Shown here: piece by piece, positions 14,367 to 59,467 of the stretch
How positions within the stretch are numbered: position 1 is the stretch's first letter
Layout: every line of letters begins with the position of its first letter
Origin: Schmidtea nova
Lineage: Eukaryota
Direction of reading: 5' to 3'
Assembly: GCA_044892505.1 (NCBI GenBank)
Contig: CM097882.1
Location: 213,218,001-213,282,000 of the forward strand
DNA length: 64,000 nucleotides
Notes under the pieces: generated by a model
What the model saw: only the letters and a program-made list of their open reading frames with translations
What the model was told of the DNA's origin: nothing
Database searches by the model: none
Translations under genes and position numbers: made by a program

Positions 14367-15041
14367 TAGTTCTTATTTTTAGAGATTTTCCGAAATTTTT
14401 TCACTTTTTCCATTGTTCCCGGACGGTTTTATTTCTACATTAACTGGTAGTTTATTTTATTCTTTACTCTATTATTTATTAGTTAATTTTTGATTTTTTT
14501 GTTCTTAGCTGGGTTGGGTTGGGTCTTGAACTTATTATTTAATTTAATCTATTTAATTATTTTTTCTTAGGTTAATCGGTCATCCCAACATATATTATGA
14601 TTTTATTACCAATTTGGGAAAATAACTGGAAAAGTTGTGAGTTCCTAAAACATCCATTCATCAAAAAAGAAAACAAAAGCCATGGTGCAAACTTTAACAA
14701 CCAAATTTTAGTAATTTAGACTGGAAATTTAGAAAAACTGATGGGCGTTCTGATTGCCAAGATGGAGGATCTGTCCGTAGCTATTCCATTACAAGATACT
14801 ATTAATAACAGGGATTGACCTCAATGAAGTGCTGATAGATCATCTGCACAATTTAGATGATGTCAGAAATTTCACATTATCCGTTGGTCGCGCCCGCTCT
14901 TAAAATATTTTTAACAATTAATTAAGTAATAATTATTTGGGTGCTTGATCGCTGTGAGAGATTGTGGAGCGAGCCTGGAAGCCATAAAAACGGACTTATT
15001 GAAATCTATATAAATCTTATATGTTCGATAACGTCAATGTA

Positions 15042-15119
15042 CGCAAATATTTTGTTGCTCGCAAAAACCGGTATTGTAGAGGAATGACTAAACATTCAAA
15101 TGAATTCTGTCCTGAGCAT
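15042..15119 (+). pseudogene. TRMT13: TRM13 (tRNA m4X methyltransferase) N-terminal zinc-finger fragment
   Basis: RKYFVARKNRYCRGMTKHSNEFCPEH fits the C.Y.V.KKRFCR......FC.EH pattern; first Cys codon appears changed TGC>CGC. Isolated, stop soon after. Confidence 0.6.
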
Positions 15120-15647
15120 TCAATTGATCATCAATCAATATCAATCCAAACTCGATGAGATCTGTCGATTTGAATGCTGTAACAAGTTTCAGTTACCAGG
15201 TAACAAAGCGCAACCAGCAGTCAAATAGTTAAAGGAAATTTAGGGGATGAGACGGTCTGTGTGCGCAGTGGTGGTGTTTCATGGGTGTGCGCACACAGAG
15301 ACGAGTTACTGAAGTCGCTTAAAGGAATTGGATTTTTGACTTTTTAAAAGTTTATTAAAAAACATTTTGGACATTAATTGATTGGTTTTTTAATTGTGTG
15401 ATTTCGGGGACTTTAAATTGGATTTTGTTTTTTGGTATGAATGGTTTTATATTGAGCGAACTTTAAATTGGAAAAACTTTTAATTTATTTTCTTATGGAT
15501 TCTTGTTTTACTTATTCAATTAATGGATTTGGTTTGAAAATGTTTTGAAAGTTTTTAAAAGGGATTTGTTTTAAAGAGTTTAAAGAATGATGATATCGTG
15601 GAGATATTTGAATTAAATGATTTTGTAATGGACTTTTTTGGGATTTA

Positions 15648-16289
15648 GTGAAAGTTTCGGTCAAATTAATGGTTGATTATAATTATGTTATGAATGTTAA
15701 TGAGGAAATTCGAAATGATGAATTGAATGAATTCATAGTCGAAGTGGATATTACGTCTTCGTTTGGAGTTCAAGAGAAGATATTCAATGGTGGTGAGAGA
15801 ATGGTTGCATCAATTCAATGGCCAACTCTGATTGAAATAACGAATTCATTGAATCAAAATGTGTTGAAAGATAAAAACATATTAATGTATAAAGCGAACA
15901 AGAGTGATATTATATATGGCTTACGTAGAATAAATGTTCCCAATGAATATGTGCACCAAGTTGTAAAACGAACATTTTCTGTATTGAGTGATTATAGTCG
16001 TGAAATATATGTCTTATCGCGATTATCACCCAGCTGTTATCTGAAACAAGATCTCAATGATGATTTCCCGATAATTCGATGCTTATTTGTTGATCGAATT
16101 TCAAATTCGAACATAAAATTGCTTGAGCCACCAAATCTTTTGGTTGGATTACCGGCACAAATATTGACTTACTGTGCATCACACGGATTGAATGGAATTA
16201 TCAATGCTGTTTATTTTGTTATGGAAATGAATAAAAATTATTATATGGACGTTCAATCGATGATTTTCCATCCGTGCCTAAAATTGTGA
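15648..16289 (+). CDS. PSMG1: Chimeric intronless ORF with a proteasome assembly chaperone 1 fragment and a shared tail module
   Basis: FPIIRCL...KLLEPPNLLVGLPAQILTYC matches PSMG1 (P.LR.L...LLEQPNIV..LPAAVLSYC). Ends VYFVMEMNKNYYM, homologous to the tail of 33972-34679. First ATG at 15669. Confidence 0.65.
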   Translation: MKVSVKLMVDYNYVMNVNEEIRNDELNEFIVEVDITSSFGVQEKIFNGGERMVASIQWPTLIEITNSLNQNVLKDKNILMYKANKSDIIYGLRRINVPNEYVHQVVKRTFSVLSDYSREIYVLSRLSPSCYLKQDLNDDFPIIRCLFVDRISNSNIKLLEPPNLLVGLPAQILTYCASHGLNGIINAVYFVMEMNKNYYMDVQSMIFHPCLKL

Positions 16290-16679
16290 AAGTTACATCG
16301 ATAGGACGCAAAAATACCATAAATGGTTGTTCCAAAAGAAGTTGAAAGAATGTGATTTTTAATAATTGTAAATGTGTTATTTAATAAATGTTTTCATCAT
16401 TTATTTGTTTATTTGTCTTTGTTAAATATGTCTTTGTTTTTAAGACTTGTTTTTAGTATTGGTTCAATATGTTTTTTATTAGANNNNNNNNNNNNNNNNN
16501 NNNNNNNNNNNNNNNNNNNNNNNNNNNNNNNNNNNNNNNNNNNNNNNNNNNNNNNNNNNNNNNNNNNNNNNNNNNNNNNNNNNNNNNNNNNNNNNNNNNN
16601 NNNNNNNNNNNNNNNNNNNNNNNNNNNNNNNNNNNNNNNNNNNAAAATTAATAATTAAATCTTAATATTTTCATGATAG

Positions 16680-16949
16680 AAAAAGTGTTTACTAAATGTG
16701 CTCCATCTCCATTATCCCTGTGGAATAATCAATATATGGGAAATGTTGCACGAACAAAATCTGGATTTCCATGTCAAAAGTGGAAAACTAACTATCCAAA
16801 TTACATTTCACAAAAAATTAAAAGCCTAATGTCAACACAATATGACAAATTAGATCATAATTTTTGTAGATCTATTGGACTAGGTTATCCAGTTTGTATG
16901 AGAGATTATCCTGGAGGTGATTTTGAGTTTTGTGACATTCCAGTATGTA
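16680..16949 (+). CDS. Kringle-domain exon 1 (phase 1-1, 270 nt)
   Basis: Six Cys with YMGNVARTKSGFPCQKW, HNFCR and FCDIPVC; acceptor GATAG|, donor A|GTAAGT. Confidence 0.9.
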
Positions 16950-18277
16950 GTAAGTAGAAATTGTTTTCTTTTATAGAACTGTACATAAAATTATTTAAAA
17001 ACCGCAAAAAATAACACATCTTTCAAAAATTTTTATTACATAGATAATGAAAAAGTCCAGAATAAAACTTTATCTGTTTTTTTTCTTATTAAAAGAGCTA
17101 TAAATCACAATATTTTCAATATAACAGAAAATTTTGGCATTTCATTAGAAAAGAGCAGTGTCAAACATTCATGTTAAATTAAAAAGATTTTTGATTTATC
17201 GTGGAAGAATGAAAATAAACAAAATCATAAATAAAACATATAGAAGATGTGGTATATTTAAAATTAATTTTAGAATTTGTTTAAATCATTGAGTTGACAT
17301 GGTTTTCTATTTTACCTAATAATGACAGTAATTCGGTCGAAATAGATAAAACTTAAAATTATATTTTGATTGAAGTTTGTAATTAATTTAAGAACATAAT
17401 TTATTAGTGTGGTGAAAAATAATAAAGTTCCTTTTATGCCACATAACAAATTGTATTCGTTTTAATTCTGTAAAGTAAATTCCCCATAATGGATATAAGA
17501 CAACATTTTATTATTATTCATAGAAAATAAAAGTTTCTGTTGTTCAAGTAATTTCGTACTGTATTATGCATTTCAAGTCATTAGAAATTCTTAATAATAA
17601 AACTCCCAGGCCAGTACTTTTTGATTGGTTATTTATTTATACGGAATCATTCTATTTAAAGAAAGTAATTTAAAATAATCAATGAAGTATTATTATTTAT
17701 CAACAATATTGTCTCAGGTTATAAATGTACCATAATATACTACAGAATCAGCCAGCTCTCTATTTGTGCTGTTGATAGTTATGAGTATATGATTCCCCGG
17801 TGATTTTAATGTTAAAACTTTAAACGTTTGGTTTAAAAATGAACGTAATTATGTATCAACTGAAATAAAATGGCTAGACAGTCAAAATGTACTATATTCA
17901 ATTATTAGGAAATTTTAAAAGTTTTGTGACAAAAAATTACAATAATATTATTTTTACATCAATTATTTTATCAATTTAAATTTGTTTAATAAAACATTAA
18001 GAACCCAGAATAATTGTCACTCTATGAACACAATCTCAGTAATTTTTATTTACAAAGGATAAACCTGAAACTCAGCAAATTCTATTACTTTAGAAAAGAA
18101 TGTTTTGAAATTAATTCAATATAAGATAAATGAGATTGTTTAATTGTTTAAATCAAAATTATATTTTTATTAATTAGAAAACATCTTTTAACTGTTGAGA
18201 CATTATAATTAAATTTCAATATAAATAATTTAATATTTTTTATTCAACTAGATATTGTTAGCTAAGCTTTCATTTGA

Positions 18278-24486: not shown

Positions 24487-26179
24487 CAGTGGCGTAGCGA
24501 AGAGGGGGCAAAGGGGAAGAGCTGCCCGGGCCCACAGTCTTATGGGCTCCAGAAAGAGTCTGAGGATCATATATAATTAGTGTTATTTAATATTTATTCT
24601 CGACTTAACTTTTTCAAATCACGAAAACAATAACGTTGAAGATGACGCCAATAGATCTAGCTATAAGACTGGAGGACATAATGATGGTGATGAATATGAC
24701 CCCCGAAGTGGTATTCCTGCAGTTCTCTTGTTCAATGACATTGGTTACTTAAAATTCGACCAAAGGTCACAACTAGCAGTAGTGTTACGAAAAAACATCG
24801 CACTGAACTGATAACCTGTGGAGATTCAGTATTTCAATACGAAGAAGACCCGTTTACACTCAATGAAAACTTGGTTTTCCAAGCGCAAGAAAGCTACAAA
24901 AAGAAAGCTATACCGATCACTGTTAAGCGAGAATCTGAAACCGGATGGAGTGCTAGAGTGGAGGCCGTCAAAGCAATTTATGAGGGGTTACATGAACTAG
25001 TGAAACTGCTAGAGACACTATCAGATGATAGGAATCAGTCAAACGATACTGCAACTGGCGCAGAAAGGTTGCTAGCGAATAATTTGGAATTCAATTTTCT
25101 TGTGTTGCTGTATTTCTGGAATGACATCCTACGAAGAATTGATCTGGTTCAGAAACGTCTTCAGGATCCTACCATGAATTTCAAGGATGCAGTATCTGAT
25201 CTCAAAGCATTGGAAATTCAAGTTAACTTAACACACGATGATTTATGTGAGTGTGTAATTAAAAGTGCAAAGAATAGATGTGCAGAATGGGGCGTAGAAG
25301 TTCAACGCCGAATGAGGAGAAGACAAATGCCAGTAGAGTTGGCTCGAGATGCCAGGTTTTCTTCAGAAGAGGAAATTGCGCGTGTTCTAAAAAGTGTTAT
25401 ATATTGACTTCAACAAAAAATGGCAACTAGATTCATTCGTCTCAATGAGTTGGATTCAAAAATTGGATTTTTATTGGATGTTCGGATTCTGTTCAAGGGA
25501 ATGGATTTGACTTCTCTTCGCAAAGATTTCTTTGACCTTGCAAACTTTTATGACACTGACGTAAATGGGAGCGAACGTTTCAACGAAATTTGCGACTGTA
25601 AAATGTTGCTTACTACGAGAGGTAATGTTTTAACATCAACCCCTTTGGATCTAATTACTTTCATCGTGTCTTATGGGGACGATGCTTTTCCAAATTTGCA
25701 AATTGCTTTACAAATTCTCTTAACAGTTGCAGTGTCAATAGCCAGTTGTGAGCTTTCCTTCTGTAAGCTGAAGCTTATTCTTTCATATTTAAGAGCGTCG
25801 ATGGGACAAGATCATCTATGCGATCTCGCGGTTCTCAGTGTAGAGAAGGAAACACTGAAAAAGATAGACTTTGATGATATAATTGACAAATTTGTGAGTG
25901 TGAACGCAAGAAAAATGAATTTTGCCAGCATGAAGACTCTTTGAAAGGGCGGTTAAAATTTATTATATAGTTTATATTGTAATTGTGATAGATAATATTA
26001 TAATAAATATGGTTGTATAATAATTAAAATTTATTTAACTCTTATGCATGACAATTGAACTATTGGAGTTATTAATTCTGTCACCCAATTAATCTCCTAT
26101 CCCTATGTAACAAGTTTTGTGTAGGGGGCGCCAAATTTAAACCTTACCCTGGGTGCCACATAGTCTCGCTACGCCTCTG
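24487..26179 (+). mobile_element. Internally deleted hAT with a transposase C-terminal pseudogene (24871-25944)
   Basis: TIR CAG(T/A)GGCGTAGCGA; perfect 8-bp TSD GGTATTAA; ETGWSARVEAVKAI and AVSIASCELSFCKLKLILSYLRASMGQ. Confidence 0.92.
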
Positions 26180-30871: not shown

Positions 30872-31238
30872 ATGGCGTTTTACAATAAAATAATCGTTGC
30901 CATGCTTGTTTAAGTGTATATTAATATTTATTAATTTTTTTTAAACATTATTGTAAAATAAATCATAATTATCTTTTGGTTTCACCATTGGTTTCACCAT
31001 TGTTTTTTTTATTTTTAATTCAATAATTTTCATATTAATTTTTTTAATACTAGAACAAAGTTTTTTTTATTGTTAAGTACCCTATATTTCGGCACAGCCT
31101 TTATTAAGTATGTGTCGAAATATCGTGTACCTAACAATCAAAATAAATATTTTGATCTAGTTTTACAAAGATTATTATGAAAATTATTGCAGTAATATTA
31201 ATCATCTAAAATATTGTTATTTTCTATTTAACATTTAG

Positions 31239-31643
31239 TAAATGTTGCCTATTTTGGTTATGCATATCAGAGTACAACTCTAAGTAACTACATATCATTA
31301 TTATCGGTTGATGGTCGCTATAAAGATGGAAAACATACTTGTTCCGTAACCCAAAATGATTATAATCAGTGGTGGGAAATTAAACTAACTGATCGGTTTT
31401 TTATTACTGCCATAGTTATCGTTAGCAAATCTACAAACGAAGCGAATTACAATCATATTAATATAGAAATAAGAAATAATTTTGTTCCATATATATATTC
31501 AGAATTTTGCGTCAAAAATGTTCTGTGGATAAGTTCCGATGATCCACGATTTTTCACTTGTAATAAATGGGGTCAAATAATAAGGATCTTTGTTGTTGAT
31601 CCTATGCCAATTTCTCTTATTCTATGCGAGGTGGAAATTTACA
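31239..31643 (+). CDS. F-type lectin (fucolectin/FTP) domain exon (phase 1-1, 405 nt; absent from the ORF track)
   Basis: Open frame NVAYFGYAYQSTT...VDG...TCSVTQND..QWWEIKL...C...C..WGQ...LILCEVEIY; acceptor TTTAG|, donor A|GTATG. Confidence 0.88.
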
Positions 31644-32137
31644 GTATGCCTTTAATGATTCCCAATACTTATTTTTTTAGATTTTTATTATTTTAAAGTG
31701 TTAAATTTTAATGGAAAATATGTTTATAGTATGTATGTACAAAGACGCTCTGAATATGGGCTACATATTAGACTCATAAAGTTTCCGAGAGGTTGATTAG
31801 GTTTTTGGTTGCCTTTTCTACATGAAAATAATAATATTCCATCTAGCAGACTGCAGTGAGCTACAATACTTATTATATATTTAAGTTATAGTTTGTTGTC
31901 CGAATTATGGCCACTTAATTAAAATGCTATTTTACAATTATATTTGAATAATGATAACATTTATAAATTTAAAAAATCAAAAATATTTATCACCATTAAA
32001 TTAATTTTTATTAAAATTACAAATTCCTTATTAATATAGATAAAATTATTTAAATCTATAATCTAGGACCTAGATTCTAGGTTTTCACATTAAATAGTAT
32101 GACCCTTCCATTTAATAGTAAGTGTTATTTATTTAAG

Positions 32138-32725: not shown

Positions 32726-33971
32726 ATTTAACTTAAAATCTAATTTATATTTTAGATAAACTATAATACAAAATATCTGAAATGATTATATAAGTAGTCA
32801 AACAACGAAGGATAAAGCATATTTTTATTGTACTATATAATATAATCATAATATAGTAACCATTAGTTACTAATAAACAAAATGTTTATGGAAAATTTAG
32901 TTGTATTTATAGTATTTAATTTCCGTGATTCGTAATCATGCTAAAAAAAATTTCAAGTCAAAATTTCAATACTTTTTTGTTGATTGTTGGTAAACAAACA
33001 AATAAACAAAATGAAAAATAACAAGATTAATTTTGAGGATTACGCCAAAGTAGACATGGTTGACAATAACAGCCTTAGTAACATAGTTAAAGTTGTGTTG
33101 AATTGTCTAATATTGGTCTACGAATCGAAAAAAACAAACTTTACTTTCAGAACTTTGTGGAAACGTTTATTTATTTTTTAAGTTAATTTTTTAAAGAATT
33201 CCTGGAAATAAATTTATTGATATGAAATTAGTAACTTTTGAGTACGAAGTTGATTGTAAAATGATAATATTACATTTAAAATATTGTCTTTTTTGGTACT
33301 TTTCTTGAGCACCTGAGCAATGATTAAATTTGGTTTCAGATCTTTAATAATTTATAGGGTTTCATTACGAAGGCAATGTTTCGGTTTCAAATATTTTAGA
33401 AAAAAACAATGTTTTAAATAATTAATTTGAGTTTATGAAACGTCACGACTGAAGAAGTTTATTTCTTAAGGAATTCGTTTGGATCAGATCAAATAAACTC
33501 ATATCAATGATTGCTGATTGATTGTAATTCATAATTGCGATGAATGTTTTCATAAGATCTTCTCCGGGTAGCCAAAGGTTATCATCGAAGTGTTTAATAT
33601 TTCTCATAATTTCTTTTGAATGTTTGTCGACTGCATTTAGAGCAAAACTTGTCTGTAACCAATATAATAAGTGGTGATTTCTGGGTGTGCGCATTGTCTT
33701 TTTTATTGTCAGCGTCTGTGTGCGCATTGCTTTTTTTGGTTGTCAGCGTCTGTGTGCGCTCTTGTGATGAAGACAAGCTCGCGTCTGTGTGCGCTTTGGT
33801 AGGAAATAGTTTTATGGAAATTTAACTTGATTTTTTGATTTTTTTTCTAGAAGGGTTTTTGTTTAATTAATCGAGGCATTAGGAACAATGGAGTTTTTTG
33901 AATTGCTTTTTGATTTGAATAATTCAATGGAATTGGATTTTTTGGGAATTTAAAATTTGATTGAATGCGTT

Positions 33972-34679
33972 ATGATGATTGTTACATTGAGGGCTGTTCA
34001 ACAGAGATCTTTCGGTGTCGAAGTTGACGATGATGATGCGGTTTTGGCATTGAAAGAGAAAATTGAAAAATGTGAGGGCAAAATTATGGACGATGATAAA
34101 CTTTTAAAGGAATATAAATTAACGGAAAAACATTTCAAATCGACTCCTTGACTTCCAGTTTCAACAATTGCAACGATTGTAAATGAAGATAAAACATTTC
34201 TGATTCTTTATTACCGACATTTGTATGCTTATGGTTCCAATTCAATTTCATTTAAGGATGGACTTGCTTCTTATTATAATTATTTTCTACCTGAACAATG
34301 GCTGTGGCATATTATCGATGAATTCATTTACCAGTATCAATCATTTTGCCATCACCGTAACGAATTGGCATTCCGGCAAGATCTAAATGAGGAATTAGAG
34401 AAATCTGATTGGACTATTCGCGCAGTTTTGAATATTCTTTATTCATTTGGTGGAAAATCCAATATAAATCAGCAGATGCAGGCTTATGCAAGCAACGGAA
34501 GCAGCCACAACGAACTCTATCCTGATAAAATCCAAGCGTTTTCTGGCGGTAACGATGTCATAGTTCGATTTGACGATTGTCCCGAAGTCCTCTCGAAAGT
34601 CCATTTGAATGTTATTTATTTAGTTACGGAAACGAATAAAAATTATTATTTGGCCTTTCATTTGATGATTAAACAATAA
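33972..34679 (+). pseudogene. In-frame chimera of RAD23 UBL fragment, eIF3L fragment and shared tail, with one internal TGA
   Basis: MMIVTLRAVQQRSFGVEV...ALKEKIEK..GKIMDDDKLLKEYK (RAD23 UBL), then LTEKHFKSTP*...FLILY.YRHLYA...SYYNY.LPEQWLWHIIDEFIYQYQSF...VLNIL...KSNINQQ (eIF3L). ORFs 33957 and 34221 are in the same frame. Confidence 0.8.
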
Positions 34680-34899
34680 GTTTGGCTATCTGAGATGATT
34701 CTGTGTCAGGAGATTTCATTCTTGCAAAGAATTTTGAAGTTACCAAAATTGGTACAGAAAATTAAGGTTTGGAATGATAATTTATGTCTCCATCGATAAA
34801 ATTGAATCCTTTAGGAGAGGCATAAAGCCAGTGCTTGATTCCTTTTCAATATTACTTAACAATGTCTATATAAACTGATATTTATTGCACTATCTAAAC

Positions 34900-35249: not shown

Positions 35250-36303
35250 AATTCTATGTGCTTTTAAAGAAGTCGTCTGATGAAATATTTCGTGATATGG
35301 AAATTGCATATGGCAACAAATGTCCTTCTAGATCCAAAATATATCGTTGATATCATTATTCAAGCATGGCCATGAAAGTGTTCACCAGGATTTTCCAATG
35401 TTGGCAGACCAACTGAAATTTCCGATAAAAAAATTACTCAATGTGAGGCGATTATTCGAGCTGAAAGACGAATTAAAGTGACTGAAATTGCAGAATTACC
35501 TAAAGTAAGTGTTGGTAATTGTCACAATATCATTAGGAAATTAGGCTATCGCAAATTATGCTCACGATTGGTTCCAAAGTTTCTGTATCCTGACAAGAAG
35601 GAAATGCGCCTCAACAACACATTATCAAATTTGCAACTGTTGAATTAGTATGATGATGCTTTTATTAATAATAGTGTTACTGAGGACGAGACATATCTTT
35701 CATTATACTTACCTGAAACCAAACGGGAACCATCTGAATTGAGACATGCAAAAGAAAGACCTCCTCTGAAGATGAGATGTGGAACCTCAAATCGAAAACA
35801 ACTGATGCTCTCAGTGTTTTGGGACAAAAGTGGAGTCATTCACCTAGACTAATGCAAAGTTACGGAAATCAAAAAATGTTCCACTTATGCTCCTTGCTGA
35901 TAATGCTCCTGTCCATGCAAGCAATGTTTCACGATATTCAACAAAAAAGAGTGGTTTTAGACTTCTCCAACACCCACCTTACAGCCCAGACCTTTCTCCG
36001 AGCGACTTCATTTTGTTCAAGCACCTGAAGAAAGCATTACGTGGACATCATTTTGAGACATCAGATGCACTCCAGCAATTTGTTGAACAGTGGTTTGCAC
36101 AGCTTCCTGGATATGTTTTGCTGATGCATTTCAAGATTTGGTTATTCGATGAAATAAGCTGGTTGCTGCCAATGGTAGTTATAAAGAAAAATAAGTAAAT
36201 ATATTTTTCGAACTAGTATTTGATGTAGTTTAATAAAAGCTGTTTCAGTTTTTTGTGTTGTGTTTCTTTCTTAGTTAGTCCGAGGTATTATTGAACGAAC
36301 TAC
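35250..36303 (+). mobile_element. Degenerate mariner, left TIR not found
   Basis: LVPK, DNAPVH and HPPYSPDLSPSDFILF motifs; right end resembles the TIR of the 22437 element. Confidence 0.8.
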
Positions 36304-44070: not shown

Positions 44071-46594
44071 CAGGGGCGGCCAACGTGAGGCCCGCGAAGA
44101 CTTTTTTAATGGCCCGCTTAACATTTTTGAATTTTCAAACATTTAACTTCAAACTGTATTTAATAATTTTTTTAATTTATTCTTATTTTTTGATAATACG
44201 TTCATGAAAAATAAATTAATTCCTATTTAAATTAAAAAATTTCAACAAAATTAAAAATAATAATGATTAAAAAAATAAAAGTTTCTCTCAACTGAATCAA
44301 AAATTAATCAATCGTAATATTTAAATTTTAAATAATCAAACTCTGTATAAAATGTTTTAGTTGTGGTTGATACTTTGACTGAAACATTTTAAAAATTATA
44401 AAACGTTTTGATCAAAAACATTATTGAAAAACTTGAAAAAGTGTACTAGTTCTAATCAGTCAAAATGCCCCAAAGTAAAATAATGACGGCAAAAAAGAAA
44501 AGAGAAAATGATTTGCTTTTGAGATGTTTTCAAGATCAATGGGAAGAACAATTCTTCTTTACACAAACAGTTTCATCAAAACCCATTTGTTTGATCTGCT
44601 CAGAAGTACTAGCAGTTGTAAAAAAATACAACGTGGAGCGACATTTTCAACAATGCCATAAAGAAATTAACTTTAAGTTTCCAATTGGATCAAGTTTGAG
44701 AAGTGAATTTATTTTAAAACAAAAAACTGCCCTGTCATTACAGAAGAACTTTTTTGTTAAAAAGAAAGAAGAAATGACCAAAATGATGACAGCATCTTTT
44801 CAAATTTCACTTCTGCTTGCACAGAAGAAGAGAAATTTCTCTGATGGAGAAATTGTAAAAGAGTGTTTGTCAATTTTTGCTGAAAACAGCGGACACAAGG
44901 GTTTGAGTTTACAAATTGAAAACATGGCACTTTCTCGAAATACAGTTATGATAAGAGTAGAAGACATGGCAAGTGATGTATCACAACAAATCATTCTTGC
45001 TTCGTCTCTTTCCAAATACCTCTCAATTGCAATTGATGAAAGCTGTGACAGGACTGACAATGCTCAATTACTTGTTTACATAAGATGTGTAAATGAAAAC
45101 TTTGACGTTGTGCAAGATCTTCTTGGTCTCTACCAGCTTCAAAAAACAACAAAAGGATCGGACATCTTTCAAGTATTAAAAGAGTGCATCGAGAGTTCTA
45201 CAAGTAACGGTCACAAGCTTGAATGGGACAAATTAGACAGCATTTGCACTGATGGAGCTCCAGCAATGGTGGGAAAAAATTCTGGTTGTGTTTCACTTCT
45301 GGAGAATTTCTTACAACGAAAACTATTTAAATACCATTGTATCATTCATCAAGAAATGCTCTGCACAAAGGACATGAAATTCAGCCATGTCATTGACACC
45401 GTTGTACACTGTGTAAATAAAATAAGAGCCCGTGCATTGCATCGAAGAGAGTTAAGGTCACTTTTTGAAAATGAAACCAATGAATATGGAGAACTTCTTC
45501 TACACTGCTCTGTTTGATGGCTTTCAAAGGGGAAAATGCTGGAGCGCTTTTTTCTACTAAAAGACCAATGTCTGCAATTTTTGGAGTCTAAAACCGAATT
45601 GCCAACAGAGTGTATCCAGTTAAAAAACAAATCTTGGGTGTGTGATCTTGCTTTTCTTGTTGATCTCACTAATTACTCGAATTGTCTCAACACTGGATTA
45701 CAAGGAGAAAATGCTTTATTTCCCACACTTTTCAATCAGATCAACTCTTTCAAAGCAAAACTGAAATTGTTTGCTAACAGCCTATCTCAGAAGAAAGTTG
45801 CTCTTTTTCCTACACTTCAAGGTTATCAACAGGAAAATAAATCTGATTTGGATTATGAGAAATACAAATCAGCCATCCTTGATTTGTCAAAATCATTTGA
45901 TTCAAGATTTACTGACTTTGAATCTGTCAAAAACAACCTACTCCTTTTCATCAATCCATTTTCAATATCTGAGATTGAAATTGATATTTATCCTCCTAAA
46001 ATCCAGTTAGAAATATCCGAAATTCAGAACCACTCAGGATTGAGAGTTAAATTCCAAGAGTTGTCTGGATCGCCAGTTTCTCCTGATCTGACAGCCTTCT
46101 GGAAAATAGTTCCCAAAAGTGATTTTCCAGAACTTCATGAAATCGCACTGAGATTTGTTTGCAAATTTGGAACAACTTATATTTGTGAAAAGACTTTTTT
46201 GACCATGAATTATGTGAAAAGTAAATACAGAACTACTTTGACAGATAAACACTTGGCCAACCTGTTATTACTATCAACAACAAAAATCAATCCTAACATT
46301 GAGAAACTAGTAAAGTCAATTCAAGTACAAAACCGCATTGACAAAATTGGTCAGAAATACGTTAGTAATAATTATCAAATTAAATATTTATGTTTTCACA
46401 TTTCATATTTGTATTTCTCTAATGTTATCATTCATAAATAAATTATATTGTATCTTAATTTGTTGATTTTATTGATTATTTTGTTGTAACATTTATAAAA
46501 AGTAATGGATATATTTTATAGATTTATGTTTTGGCTCGCCAAACTTTTTGGGTAAAAGTTTTTGCCCACTTGTGAAAAAGGTTGGCCACCCCTG
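44071..46594 (+). mobile_element. Full-length hAT of the Buster/Charlie group
   Basis: TIR CAGGGG(C/T)GGCCAAC; target copies TTCTAAAA / CTCTAAAC. Confidence 0.92.
44465..46344 (+). pseudogene. Buster/Charlie-type transposase with one in-frame stop and a probable terminal frameshift
   Basis: N-terminal CLIC...HF zinc finger, IDESCDRTD, CTDGAPAM, HCIIHQE, V*WLSKG (consensus RW), TYICEKTF. ORFs 44465 and 45536 are in frame. Confidence 0.92.
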
Positions 46595-52724: not shown

Positions 52725-53030
<306 letters not shown>

Positions 53031-55856: not shown

Positions 55857-58628
55857 CTAGGTTAAGTATCGTGACGGTACTTTTACTTGTCTTCCAGATC
55901 GAGTAGTCGATTCGCTTCCTGCTGGTTCTGTTGACGACAAACTGTCTTCAAATGTAGTCTCGGAATGCCCGAACGTTTCTAGGGTGTCTTTCCCACTTTC
56001 AAGCTCTGTATCAGCTGAGCTATTTGAACATGGTGCAAGGTGACTCGTCGATACTGTGTCTGTCCTTCCATCTCTGTGTTGTACTCTTGCATAGTACGGC
56101 GATATTGTCTCGATCAGTTTGACCTCATCGACAAGTGGATCATTTTTATAGCGAATGTGTCGTTTTAGTAGGATGTTTTGATCAGTATTTCGTAGAAATT
56201 CTGGTAAATCATATCCAATTACGGACGCTCGATCAAATTTAAACATTCGATCGTGAGGTGTCGAATTAGTAGAGACGCACAGCAGTGATCTCATTGATGA
56301 AAGGGATACGTCCAATACTTTTTCCCAATGCTCCTTGGTCATATTGTTTTCCTTTAGGGCTAAGTTTATCGTTTTCAATAGAATTCCGTTAATTCTTTCG
56401 CATTGACCGTTACCTTGAGGATGATAAGGCGTTGTACGTGTTTTCGCCACTCCGTGTTTAATTAAAAAGTCATTGAATTGTCTGCTTTCGAATTGTGCTC
56501 CTCTGTCGCTATGTACGGACGAAGGTGAACCAAACAAGGTAAATAAACTGAACATGTGTTTTATTACGGTGTCAGAATCGACGTTAGCACAAGGAAAGGC
56601 AAAAGGGTACCTGGAATATTCGTCGACAACGACGAGCAAGAAACGATTAGATGTTGTGCTTTGTAGAGGTCCCACAAAGTCGATTGAAATTCTATCCCAG
56701 GGTTTCATTGATGAGATTAGGCTTCTACTTGGAGGTTTGAAGTATCTTGGTTTTATCTGTTTGCATGTTTCACAGTTTCCAATAACGTTTTTAATGTCTT
56801 GGATGGAGTATGGTAGATTCTTCGCTCGGCAGTAATGATACATACGAGTGATACCGGGATGACATAAATTTCCATGAAGTAACTTTAAAGAGTTAGAACT
56901 AATTATTGAACTACATCTAGATAATGCGTCAGCTGGTATGTTGTCGGGACCTGGTTTGTATTTTATGTTGAATCTCAGATCTGATAATTCAATTCTCCAT
57001 CGTGCGATCTTTTCATTCTTAGTTTTGGATAATTTTTGCCGATTGAATATTAACGAAACTGACTTCTGATCTGTAAGAATATTAAAGAAAGGTATCGAAT
57101 GTAAAAGGCTACGCCATTTTTGGGTACATTCGACGATTGCCGCGGCCTCTTTTTCAATGATGGAGTGATTCCTTTCTGACTTTGAGAGTAAACGAGAAAA
57201 GAATGCAATCGGTCGGCCGTTCTGACTCAATACTCCGCCCAATGCATGGTCGGATGCATCGGTTTCAATATCTTAAGGTTGATCTTGAGTTGGGGAATGT
57301 AGTGAAGCAGTTTGTAATTTGGTCTTCAGTAAATGTATTGTTTCGATGCATTCATTTGGCAGTGTGTTGCTTGACGTGAGTTCTTTACGAGAATCAGTTA
57401 GTATTCTCGTGTATTCTGAGCATCGTGGGATCCATTTTGCGTAATATGCAAAAAAACCTATTAAACGATCCATTTCTTTTGTAGACGCTGGAATTGGAAG
57501 GTCCACGAGAGCCTTGAAACGGTCCGGATCTGGCCTTATTGATTGGTTTTCAATTACGTGTCCTAGAAATGATATAGACGTTGTAGAAAACTTACTTTTG
57601 CTTTCGTTTATTTGTAGATTTTTTAATTTAGAGGCCTTTAGAAATTCTTTAAGGTTTTGATCGTGCTCTTCTTTATTTTTACCACCAATTATTATGTCGT
57701 CGAGATAAGCAAACGTTGACTGAAGATTGTGCTCTTGGATGAATTTGTCGATGATTCTCTGAAAAATTGGGACTGCGTTGGTGCAACCGAAAGGTAGTTT
57801 GGTAAATTCATATAATTTACCCTGTGCTTCGAAAGCAGTTAGTTGATAGTCTGATGGTTGTATTTGGACCTGACGATATGCTGACTTGAGCTCTACCTTA
57901 CCGAAAATTGTGTTCTTTGCTATTTTAAAGAGCAGATCGTCAATTCTAGGCATTGGGTATGAGTCAAGATTAGTGTACCAATTGATTGTATTTGAGTAAT
58001 CTATTACGAGCCGTTGTTTGCTGTTCTGGTTGATGGTGAAGCACTGTGCTCGCCAAGGACTTTGGCTTTCTTGAATGATTCTGTCGGAGAGGAGTCTCGA
58101 TATTTCTTGGCTGATAAACTATGAATTTTGTGAGGACCGTCGTGATGGCATAGCGATTGGTTTGATTTTACTTATGTCAACTCATGGCAAGAGCGGATAC
58201 GTGTCACATGTCATTGTCTTGAGAGCTAAAGATAGTGTGATCGGATGTCTATCGCCACCAAGTTCTAGATTAATTCTCGAGTGTCTTTTTAGGATGTCCA
58301 TTCCAATTATCACTTTAGTGACCAGTGATTTGGAGACTTGGAAATGTGCCTCGTAGACCTTGTTTGCCAACATTAACTTTCCATAGTAGGTACCTGAAGT
58401 TGAGGATATCGATTTATTCGCAAGGAGAACCTGTTTTACTTCTTTGTGATTAAAGGTTAGATTCTTACTATTGAGGAATTCTTCTGACACAAAGGACAAA
58501 TCTGATCCCGTATCAATTAATGCTCGAACTGAGTTTCCATCGAGAAAAGCCTCAACTAAAGAATTTTGGGCATTGATTGTTGCTAATCTAGAAATAGAGC
58601 AACTCTGAATCGGTCCGTCAACGTCCAT
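55857..58628 (-). pseudogene. pol (PR-RT-RNase H-IN), with stops and a frameshift
   Basis: LIDTGS, AYLDD, TDASD, HHCC zinc finger, IDFVG, HSDRG, ERIN; no chromodomain seen. Confidence 0.92.
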
Positions 58629-58638
58629 GTTTGTTTCT

Positions 58639-59342
58639 TCAGTAGAGATAGACGCTATTTTTTTTAGCTAAACATACCGGACTCCAGTGACTTTTCTTCT
58701 GGCATTTGTTGTAAGCAGAGTTTCTTGCTGGGCAACTAGATCGCGAATGTTTAGATTTACCACACCATTGGCAGCCAGTAGTCATTGCTGATGTTGTATA
58801 GAGTGATCTGTTTACAGTTGGCTCTGAATGCTGATCCTGTCGAAGATAGTTAGAATCTTTTATTGCAGATTCTAGAGACATCGCACGTGTAACCATGACT
58901 TGGAGGCTGACGTTTTCTAACTCCAAGAGTCTTTGTCGAATTTCATTTGAGCTAATTCCAAAGACTAATGCGTCGCTTATCATTAGATTATGATGTTCTT
59001 CTGCAGAGAGAGCTGGAGTTGGACACTTGTGAACTGCAACTGTGAGTCTTGTTGTAAAGTCTTCGATTGTTTCATTGTTCTGATCTTGAACCGCACGAGA
59101 GTTGATGAGGACCTTTTGACATGCCTTGCTATTAACTTTTGCATTGCTTCTTTGTAATCGCTGCAATGTTCCAAGGTGATGAAAATGTTTGATGGCACCA
59201 ATGAGAGAAGAGCTTCTAAACTGTCGTTGTCTGATAATGCCAGTCTTCTGATGTATGTCTCGAACACACGCTTCCATTGGAGAAATTCATTTTCAGAGGC
59301 ATTTTCCGGAAGAGCTTTTTGAAAGATTTTCAGATTCATCAT
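58639..59342 (-). pseudogene. gag, frameshifted
   Basis: WKRVFETY, EIRQRLLE and tandem zinc knuckles CQWCGKSKHSRSSC / KCQKKSHWSPVC. Confidence 0.85.
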
Positions 59343-59467
59343 TATTCAAATTGAATAAAATTGAACTGATAAAAAGTAACTAAGTGAAACTTAAAAGTTT
59401 TTATTCAATTTGAATAATGATGAATGTCTTAATATATAATATTAAAACAAATCATTATTAAATATAT

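Follow-up and report, generated by a model that had tools for sequence, protein, structure and literature searches.

In yeast Ty1, gag starts inside the 5′ LTR, the primer site lies within coding sequence and initiator tRNA-Met serves as primer; the LTR is short, and it contains no host cargo and no ubiquitin. Bel/Pao elements (Belpaoviridae), as described in the main text of PMC3118150, have a single gag-pol open reading frame (ORF) with DUF1759, aspartic protease, reverse transcriptase (RT), PF05380, integrase and DUF5641, together with TG...CA LTRs and a 5-bp target site duplication (TSD), and the elements reported here resemble them in all of these respects. They differ from that description in that their LTRs of 0.7–2 kb are largely host cDNA, the ORF runs from the LTR across the primer site, and ubiquitin precedes Gag; the word ubiquitin is absent from the main text of PMC3118150. 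LTR-mediated retroposition in animals, as outlined in PMC5131818, captures host mRNA by template switching and leaves internal retrocopies that replace the element ORF. In common with that process and with maize Bs1, the copies studied here contain partial intronless mRNA with microsimilarity at the joints, combine several parents in one copy and have spread further. In the Bs1 type (maize, Drosophila), however, the retrocopy lies between the LTRs and copies are few (one to five for Bs1), whereas here the cargo lies inside both LTRs of coding-intact elements, is fused to Gag-Pol, extends clade-wide and is present in at least hundreds of copies.

Cellular ubiquitin within a polyprotein also has a precedent. 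In cytopathic pestiviruses, according to the account in PMC8310069, cellular ubiquitin is inserted into the polyprotein and cutting by host hydrolases sets the next N-terminus. Those insertions are sporadic variants of an RNA virus whose cleavage was established by experiment, whereas here ubiquitin is a fixed trait of an LTR element and its cleavage is a prediction. The giant Gypsy element Burro (PMC6431247) likewise joins host-like domains, including Ubi2/SUMO-type motifs, to an LTR element in one polyprotein, but it exceeds 30 kb, its Gag is N-terminal, its extra domains are internal, and no LTR cargo is seen in the description given there. Neither cargo-bearing LTRs nor ubiquitin-Gag Bel/Pao elements appear in the portions covered of PMC3118150, PMC6431247, PMC8532177, PMC13524379, PMC12440569 and PMC11410931. 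A literature search, outside Repbase, most subscription journals and supplements, found no LTR cargo in coding-intact elements ahead of ubiquitin-Gag. LTR-mediated mRNA capture is known; what appears to be new is that the cargo is placed within the LTRs themselves, shares the frame of ubiquitin-Gag-Pol and occurs in elements that are coding-intact.

The window, a 64,000-bp stretch of Schmidtea nova DNA, contains two blocks, A and B, that are identified by alignment as solo LTRs of a Bel/Pao clade. Block A (33672–34675, plus strand) is 1004 bp long, TGGTGATTTC...ATTAAACA, with ends and TSD taken from the locus alignment; the duplicated target, ATAAG, lies on the left at 33667–33671 and on the right at 34676–34680 (plus strand). 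Block B (14885–16270, plus strand) is 1386 bp long, TGGTCGCGCC...TTTTCCA, and is flanked by a perfect 5-bp TSD, TCCGT, at 14880–14884 and 16271–16275. These ends replace the bounds of 33440–34760 and 15270–16330 proposed in an earlier, sequence-only reading of the window. Block A opens with a G+T-rich leader (33672–33946) with four GTGTGCGC repeats, which likely serves as promoter and 5′ untranslated part. Next comes the RAD23 5′ end (33947–34137), consisting of a diverged 5′UTR, a start codon at 33975 and UBL coding sequence, followed by an eIF3L fragment of exons 2–3 (34115–34499) whose 3′ end is the exon-3 splice donor. An older in-frame segment (34500–34607), common to the HEAT-repeat and NOP9-like cargo types and for which a search found no source gene, leads into the LTR 3′ terminus, or tail (34608–34675), with AATAAA at 34635–34640. 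All of these features are on the plus strand, as is the PSMG1 cargo of block B (15655–16215), which comprises a 5′UTR piece, a start codon at 15669, a 63-nt deletion and then 544 nt at 90% identity to the parent.

Most of what the sequence-only reading said about content was borne out. Pfam confirmed the cargo as ubiquitin-like plus Paf67 (eIF3L) in block A and PAC1 (PSMG1) in block B, and the one in-frame stop reported for block A is at 34149–34151, inside the eIF3L piece. The proposed microhomology joint between RAD23 and eIF3L is a 15-nt word, TAAATTAACGGAAAA (34115–34129, plus strand), which is present in both parent genes and constitutes the switch point. The two blocks do share GTGTGCGC repeat clusters, at 33685, 33718, 33752 and 33787 in block A and at 15259 and 15285 in block B, and nowhere else on the plus strand of the window. 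They also share the tail, with 84% identity over 63 bp between 34608–34670 and 16203–16265 (E 2e-15). The leaders of the two blocks showed only a weak alignment (at best 40 bp, E 0.007), and the two LTRs differ at their 5′ ends; the strict six-T form of the leader motif attributed to both blocks matched at 15630 only. The internal deletions had all been ascribed to short repeats. That explanation stood for two of the four, which occurred at direct repeats of 5 and 7 nt, and failed for the other two, which are GT...AG excisions of 42 nt with 2-nt homology and of 48 nt with none. The eIF3L piece of block A has deletions of 12, 48 and 9 nt.

Exons of the kringle and galactose-binding types are present on the plus strand at window positions 16655–16954, 31232–31693 and 52725–53030; block A, which has the same orientation as this host gene, may lie in one of its introns, and possibly block B does too. 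Elsewhere (55860–59345 on the minus strand; 35848–36195; 25408–25941; 44456–46438) the window contains an unrelated element, of Gypsy type judging from the order of its domains, as well as remnants of a DDE transposase and of hAT-type elements.

Block A is 94% identical over 842 bp to the 5′ LTR of L189; that LTR adjoins a primer site, and its RAD23-eIF3L frame runs through 272 codons without a stop and continues into the site. Identity to L123, a decayed element with paired LTRs, is 89% for either LTR. Block B matches, at 94–97% identity, the 5′ LTR of L042/L049, a paired element whose own LTRs are 99.6% alike. It is this similarity to LTRs of primer-site or paired elements that identifies the window copies as solo LTRs. 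When used as genome queries, the tail and the PSMG1 block gave 1,229 and 1,003 first-look candidates, respectively, with 40 scored in each case, figures that are not copy numbers. Termini and TSDs, which the earlier reading had left to a multi-copy alignment, were defined in this way as TG...CA ends with a 5-bp TSD; alignment of 30 loci fixed the A-type ends at TGGTGATTTC to about TTTACCA. Among both-end loci in the 30 fetched per type, perfect 5-bp TSDs flanked 12 of 21 A-type copies (with a 4-of-5 match at 5 more) and 17 of 26 B-type copies. Several TSDs lie inside AAT repeats, where a match is trivial; the window copies (ATAAG, TCCGT) are outside such repeats. Many insertions were in AAT or ATT microsatellites (L012, L019, L020, L022, L032–L060), which suggests a target preference.

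At L028, L042, L051 and L056, TGGTAGCAGAGC directly follows the LTR, and at L008 a purine tract precedes it. This primer site is the 18-nt complement of the 3′ end of genomic tRNA-Met(CAT), which we take to be of the initiator type. CA plus the primer site had 576 exact genome matches and the control none. The core word of the primer site occurs 2,696 times, and after removal of 1,034 occurrences that fit the tRNA-gene pattern, about 1,660 candidate primer sites were left. Tandem tRNA-Met(CAT) genes with a 458-bp period begin at G000:C1 510,090,091 (L326) and would supply the predicted primer tRNA of the clade.

Longer stretches contained direct terminal repeats with identical cargo, TG...CA ends, a purine tract before the 3′ LTR and a 5-bp TSD. 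Paired LTRs were 99–100% alike in most young elements, and pairs up to 100% identical indicate recent insertion. Fifteen of 17 stretches around Pao RNase H matches had one ORF of 2,040–2,572 codons starting in the 5′ LTR, and the ORF was broken in the other two. Consistent with Bel/Pao, the single ORF is ordered Gag-PR-RT-RH-IN, with PF03564, PF05380 and PF18701. All five intact ORFs scanned contained DUF1759, RT (RVT_1), PF05380 and DUF5641, integrase models scored in three of the five, and PF03564 was present in 26 of 26 Gag relatives among the matches listed. The cassette, earlier thought to be a non-autonomous element, is thus a Bel/Pao LTR, and its clade has members that are coding-intact. 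Contigs from four runs of a single study, which do not bear on expression, also cover the element. Derivatives of 4–7 kb (L113, L116, L117, L118, L122 and L123) kept ubiquitin and the Gag start and have a long acidic coiled-coil region instead of RT and integrase. An array at G000:C1:34,765,000–34,787,000 (L110–L112) has four internal regions and five shared LTRs inside one TSD, with a period of about 5,027 bp and repeats 99.7–99.9% alike.

The cargo derives from spliced host mRNA. The parent genes lie at about G000:C1 281,478,000 on the minus strand for RAD23 (single XPC-binding match), about G000:C2 452,306,500 on the plus strand for eIF3L and about G000:C1 6,176,000 on the plus strand for PSMG1. 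The PSMG1 parent was found by family search, and a homolog search with the PSMG1 cargo gave no match; PAC1 matches the genome at 58 places. Introns were missing from the cargo for all four parents examined (two of RAD23, one of eIF3L, two of UBA1 and one of PSMG1), and alignment to the RAD23, eIF3L and PSMG1 parents, as the sequence-only reading had proposed, showed cargo without their introns. In RAD23 cargo the 49-nt intron 1 was removed exactly, and intron 2 was gone with 42 further bases beginning GT in 13 of 13 copies scored. The 46-nt intron 2 of eIF3L was absent in the 16 copies that retain the flanking exons. UBA1 cargo lacks an 83-nt 5′UTR intron and a 45-nt intron and keeps the 5′UTR exon, and PSMG1 cargo (L212) lacks the 48-nt intron after the start codon and keeps about 75 nt of 5′UTR. 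The cargo is sense-strand, often with 5′UTR and start codon. These findings support the earlier view of a multi-copy family with chimeric in-frame ORFs made from spliced host mRNA, and the separate intron-bearing parents rule out that the block cargo represents the genuine host genes. Nor is the RAD23/eIF3L joint an assembly chimera, because the joint pattern recurs at 39 loci on 3 chromosomes and the reversed control gave 0. Decayed eIF3L C-terminal matches with stops and 52–59% identity were also found apart from the parent (L101–L104, G000:C1 about 298 Mb and 353.5 Mb).

The 15-nt word shared by RAD23 and eIF3L was matched by 0 of 500 codon shuffles. The 3′ joints of UBA1 and PSMG1 are mid-exon, with 10 of 11 and 11 of 12 matching bases, respectively (by eye). 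Microsimilarity was thus seen at three of the four 3′ joints examined. The fourth, that of eIF3L, whose partner gave no parent to score against, coincides exactly with the exon-3 donor, and the intron that follows this donor in the parent is 1,588 nt long. The 48-nt GT-AG piece of eIF3L cargo was absent in four copies, including that of the window, and kept in 16; host introns measure 45–53 nt. Because the piece spans an already spliced junction, its loss most likely reflects splicing of the element's own RNA, and for both the 42-nt and the 48-nt deletions splicing is a better reading than deletion at short repeats.

Upstream of the primer site, the Gag frame encodes pieces of fifteen Pfam-supported host families (E below 1e-7): RAD23 UBL, eIF3L, PSMG1, UBA1 (ThiF), DCC1, FKBP with TPR, TCP1, HECT, prenyltransferase, VPS35, FHA, enolase, proteasome subunit, SAM decarboxylase and ANAPC2. 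Cargo was present in both LTRs for RAD23/eIF3L, PSMG1, UBA1, DCC1, TCP1, FKBP-TPR, prenyltransferase and VPS35, in a comparison that left out enolase, the proteasome subunit, SAM decarboxylase, ANAPC2, HECT and FHA. Upstream ORFs without a family match numbered 8 of 33 and 8 of 19 scanned. The names PP4R1, NOP9, calmodulin and FKBP6 used for some cargo are presumptive, backed by weak matches at most. Pieces of HSP90, HSP70 and ubiquitin are internal, behind the primer site. Among 67 ORFs in other frames or on the other strand, a set that left out 16 ORFs that were Gag-frame pieces or near duplicates, one had a family match, to a zinc finger of the TRM13 type, close to the 5′ end of an LTR. An upstream LTR segment at L110:2118–2651 has an open frame without a Pfam match and is separated from the Gag frame by stops; we take it to resemble DNAJC13/RME-8.

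The ubiquitin diglycine lies directly before Gag in all ten ORFs of our own set, which are 47–84% identical to ubiquitin and come from families 56–76% alike in RT-RNase H. It was kept at 41 of 45 in-frame loci and in six of seven alignable outside proteins. In the main family ubiquitin ends in LRLCGG rather than LRLRGG, which may weaken cleavage. None of the 17 fetched stretches held a ubiquitin-free Bel/Pao family. Among 179 outside proteins, six have a ubiquitin-like stretch and two more start with a ubiquitin tail. One outside protein, P0186, starts with a GSRA-like stretch, followed by HSP90 sequence that matches another part of the profile and then by ubiquitin and Gag; it is a possible independent case in another organism. 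A metagenome scan with an outside ubiquitin-Gag protein gave ubiquitin matches and no Gag match at 79 loci. Given the pestivirus precedent, as related in PMC8310069, host deubiquitinases are predicted to remove the cargo by cutting behind ubiquitin.

We infer that the cargo is likely translated as the N-terminus of the element protein. In a set of 70 loci (the first 30 of the 576 primer sites and 40 more on C1), the frame reached ubiquitin at 45, continuing through heat-shock fragments and ubiquitin into Gag-Pol. At 63 of the 70 loci, the Gag frame had no stop within 100 or more codons upstream of the primer site, as against 0 and 1 for the other frames; in a second set this was so at 21 of 27 loci, as against 0 and 0. 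These counts are not independent, owing to shared descent, tandem arrays and a common tail with stops in the other frames, and the stronger argument is therefore that fifteen unrelated genes lie in one frame and on one strand. Shared and private cargo changes had similar pN/pS values (0.67 and 0.74, respectively; p = 0.71) in a crude count with no transition correction, and stops among shared changes were not significantly rarer (p = 0.21). In the older eIF3L lineage, five stops are shared and 6 of 12 shared indels break the frame, so some copies must have spread without an open frame. Selection seems to act on the frame and, for the most part, not on the residues of the cargo. The idea that the cargo has a clear function as protein was rejected on pN/pS values without clear purifying selection, with which weak selection is still compatible. 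Every intact ORF checked had four to eight in-frame Met codons between the primer site and ubiquitin, and a start codon in the LTR is therefore not strictly required. AATAAA lies 29–41 nt before the LTR end at 60 of the 70 primer-site loci and is missing there in several other families. We infer that a long R region holds the cargo.

The explanation that we favor, with considerable confidence, is a Bel/Pao clade with LTRs that contain intronless pieces of host mRNA, joined in frame to ubiquitin-Gag-Pol; the pieces were likely captured by RT template switching, are likely translated from the R region and are predicted to be removed by deubiquitinases. While copying the LTR region, RT would switch at a short match onto an mRNA packaged in the same particle and switch back at another; the new LTR would be duplicated on integration, and repeated rounds would stack fragments. 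Transcription would begin in the leader and end behind the AATAAA near the LTR end. Ribosomes would meet the cargo first, such that only in-frame captures would survive. A cut after the ubiquitin diglycine would release Gag from 250–620 residues of variable cargo, making almost any in-frame capture tolerable. Standard LTR-LTR recombination would then leave solo copies such as those in the window.

Template switching is not the only conceivable route of capture. An element residing in a host intron could gain upstream exons spliced into its LTR, the chimeric RNA then being reverse transcribed. The frequent presence of 5′UTR and first exons in cargo would fit this route, and for the eIF3L 3′ joint, exactly at the exon-3 donor, it is the better fit, the sole case that favors splicing; even so, eIF3L intron 3 has no match to the next segment, the 3′ joints of RAD23, UBA1 and PSMG1 lie within exons, at short matches, and the TCP1, VPS35 and HECT pieces are internal. 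Splicing may account for a minority of captures, but as the general explanation we judge it quite unlikely. Capture by a Pack-type DNA transposon (MULE, Helitron or Ginger-like), of which the sequence-only reading named Pack-MULEs and Helitrons as analogues, has next to no chance of being correct. Most copies found by cargo search do stand alone between TSDs with short imperfect inverted ends, but the LTR unit also occurs as a direct repeat at both ends of elements that have a primer site, gag-pol and a purine tract in between, which refutes it. The TSD is 5 bp, the cargo lacks introns and the aligned ends lack long inverted repeats, and the hallmarks of Pack-MULEs and Helitrons (long inverted repeats with 8–10 bp TSD; a 3′ hairpin with no TSD; intron-bearing cargo) are absent here.

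Two further explanations concern what the cargo does once captured. It could be a passenger in untranscribed U3, its open frame merely a sign of recent capture, with Gag starting at a Met behind the primer site. In-frame Met codons are indeed present there, pN/pS is near neutral, and some upstream cargo, such as the TRM13-type zinc finger, is cut off by stops. We nevertheless consider this very improbable, since the fifteen unrelated genes are all in the Gag frame and on its strand, and since leaders of short LTR types are poor in ATG (0–12 per kb, against 18–43 in cargo, raw values uncorrected for base composition). The cargo could also shield the element, in that any small RNA directed at the LTR would strike essential host mRNAs as well, which would hold silencing back. 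Most of the cargo comes from genes for housekeeping and proteostasis, identity to the parent is about 98% in young copies, and the cargo amino acids are without clear selection, all of which would suit a shield; yet such cargo is predicted by mRNA abundance alone, and a shield leaves the frame unexplained. We regard it as unlikely, although it can coexist with template-switch capture and R-region translation as a reason why cargo persists.

Extended to the whole Bel/Pao clade, our proposal is more tentative, and we put it at somewhat under an even chance. Capture of mRNA would be part of the normal evolution of these elements: once a cleavable ubiquitin stood before Gag, the 5′ RNA end would have been replaced repeatedly by 5′ ends of abundant host messages with their translation starts, copied into both LTRs, and scattered as solo LTRs in thousands of promoter-bearing chimeric fragments. 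The clade preserves many natural outcomes of RT template switching, along with evidence of which host mRNAs enter retrotransposon particles, and the parents can be compared. It also suggests that a cleavable ubiquitin is a simple enabling step, one that lets an element capture genes without cost and without losing its own coding capacity. LTR cargo misleads annotation, as with PAC1 in 58 places, and small-RNA silencing faces a conflict, open to testing, where the LTRs have sequence in common with essential mRNAs. Finally, solo LTRs spread cassettes of a promoter plus a chimeric ORF, which are raw material for new genes.
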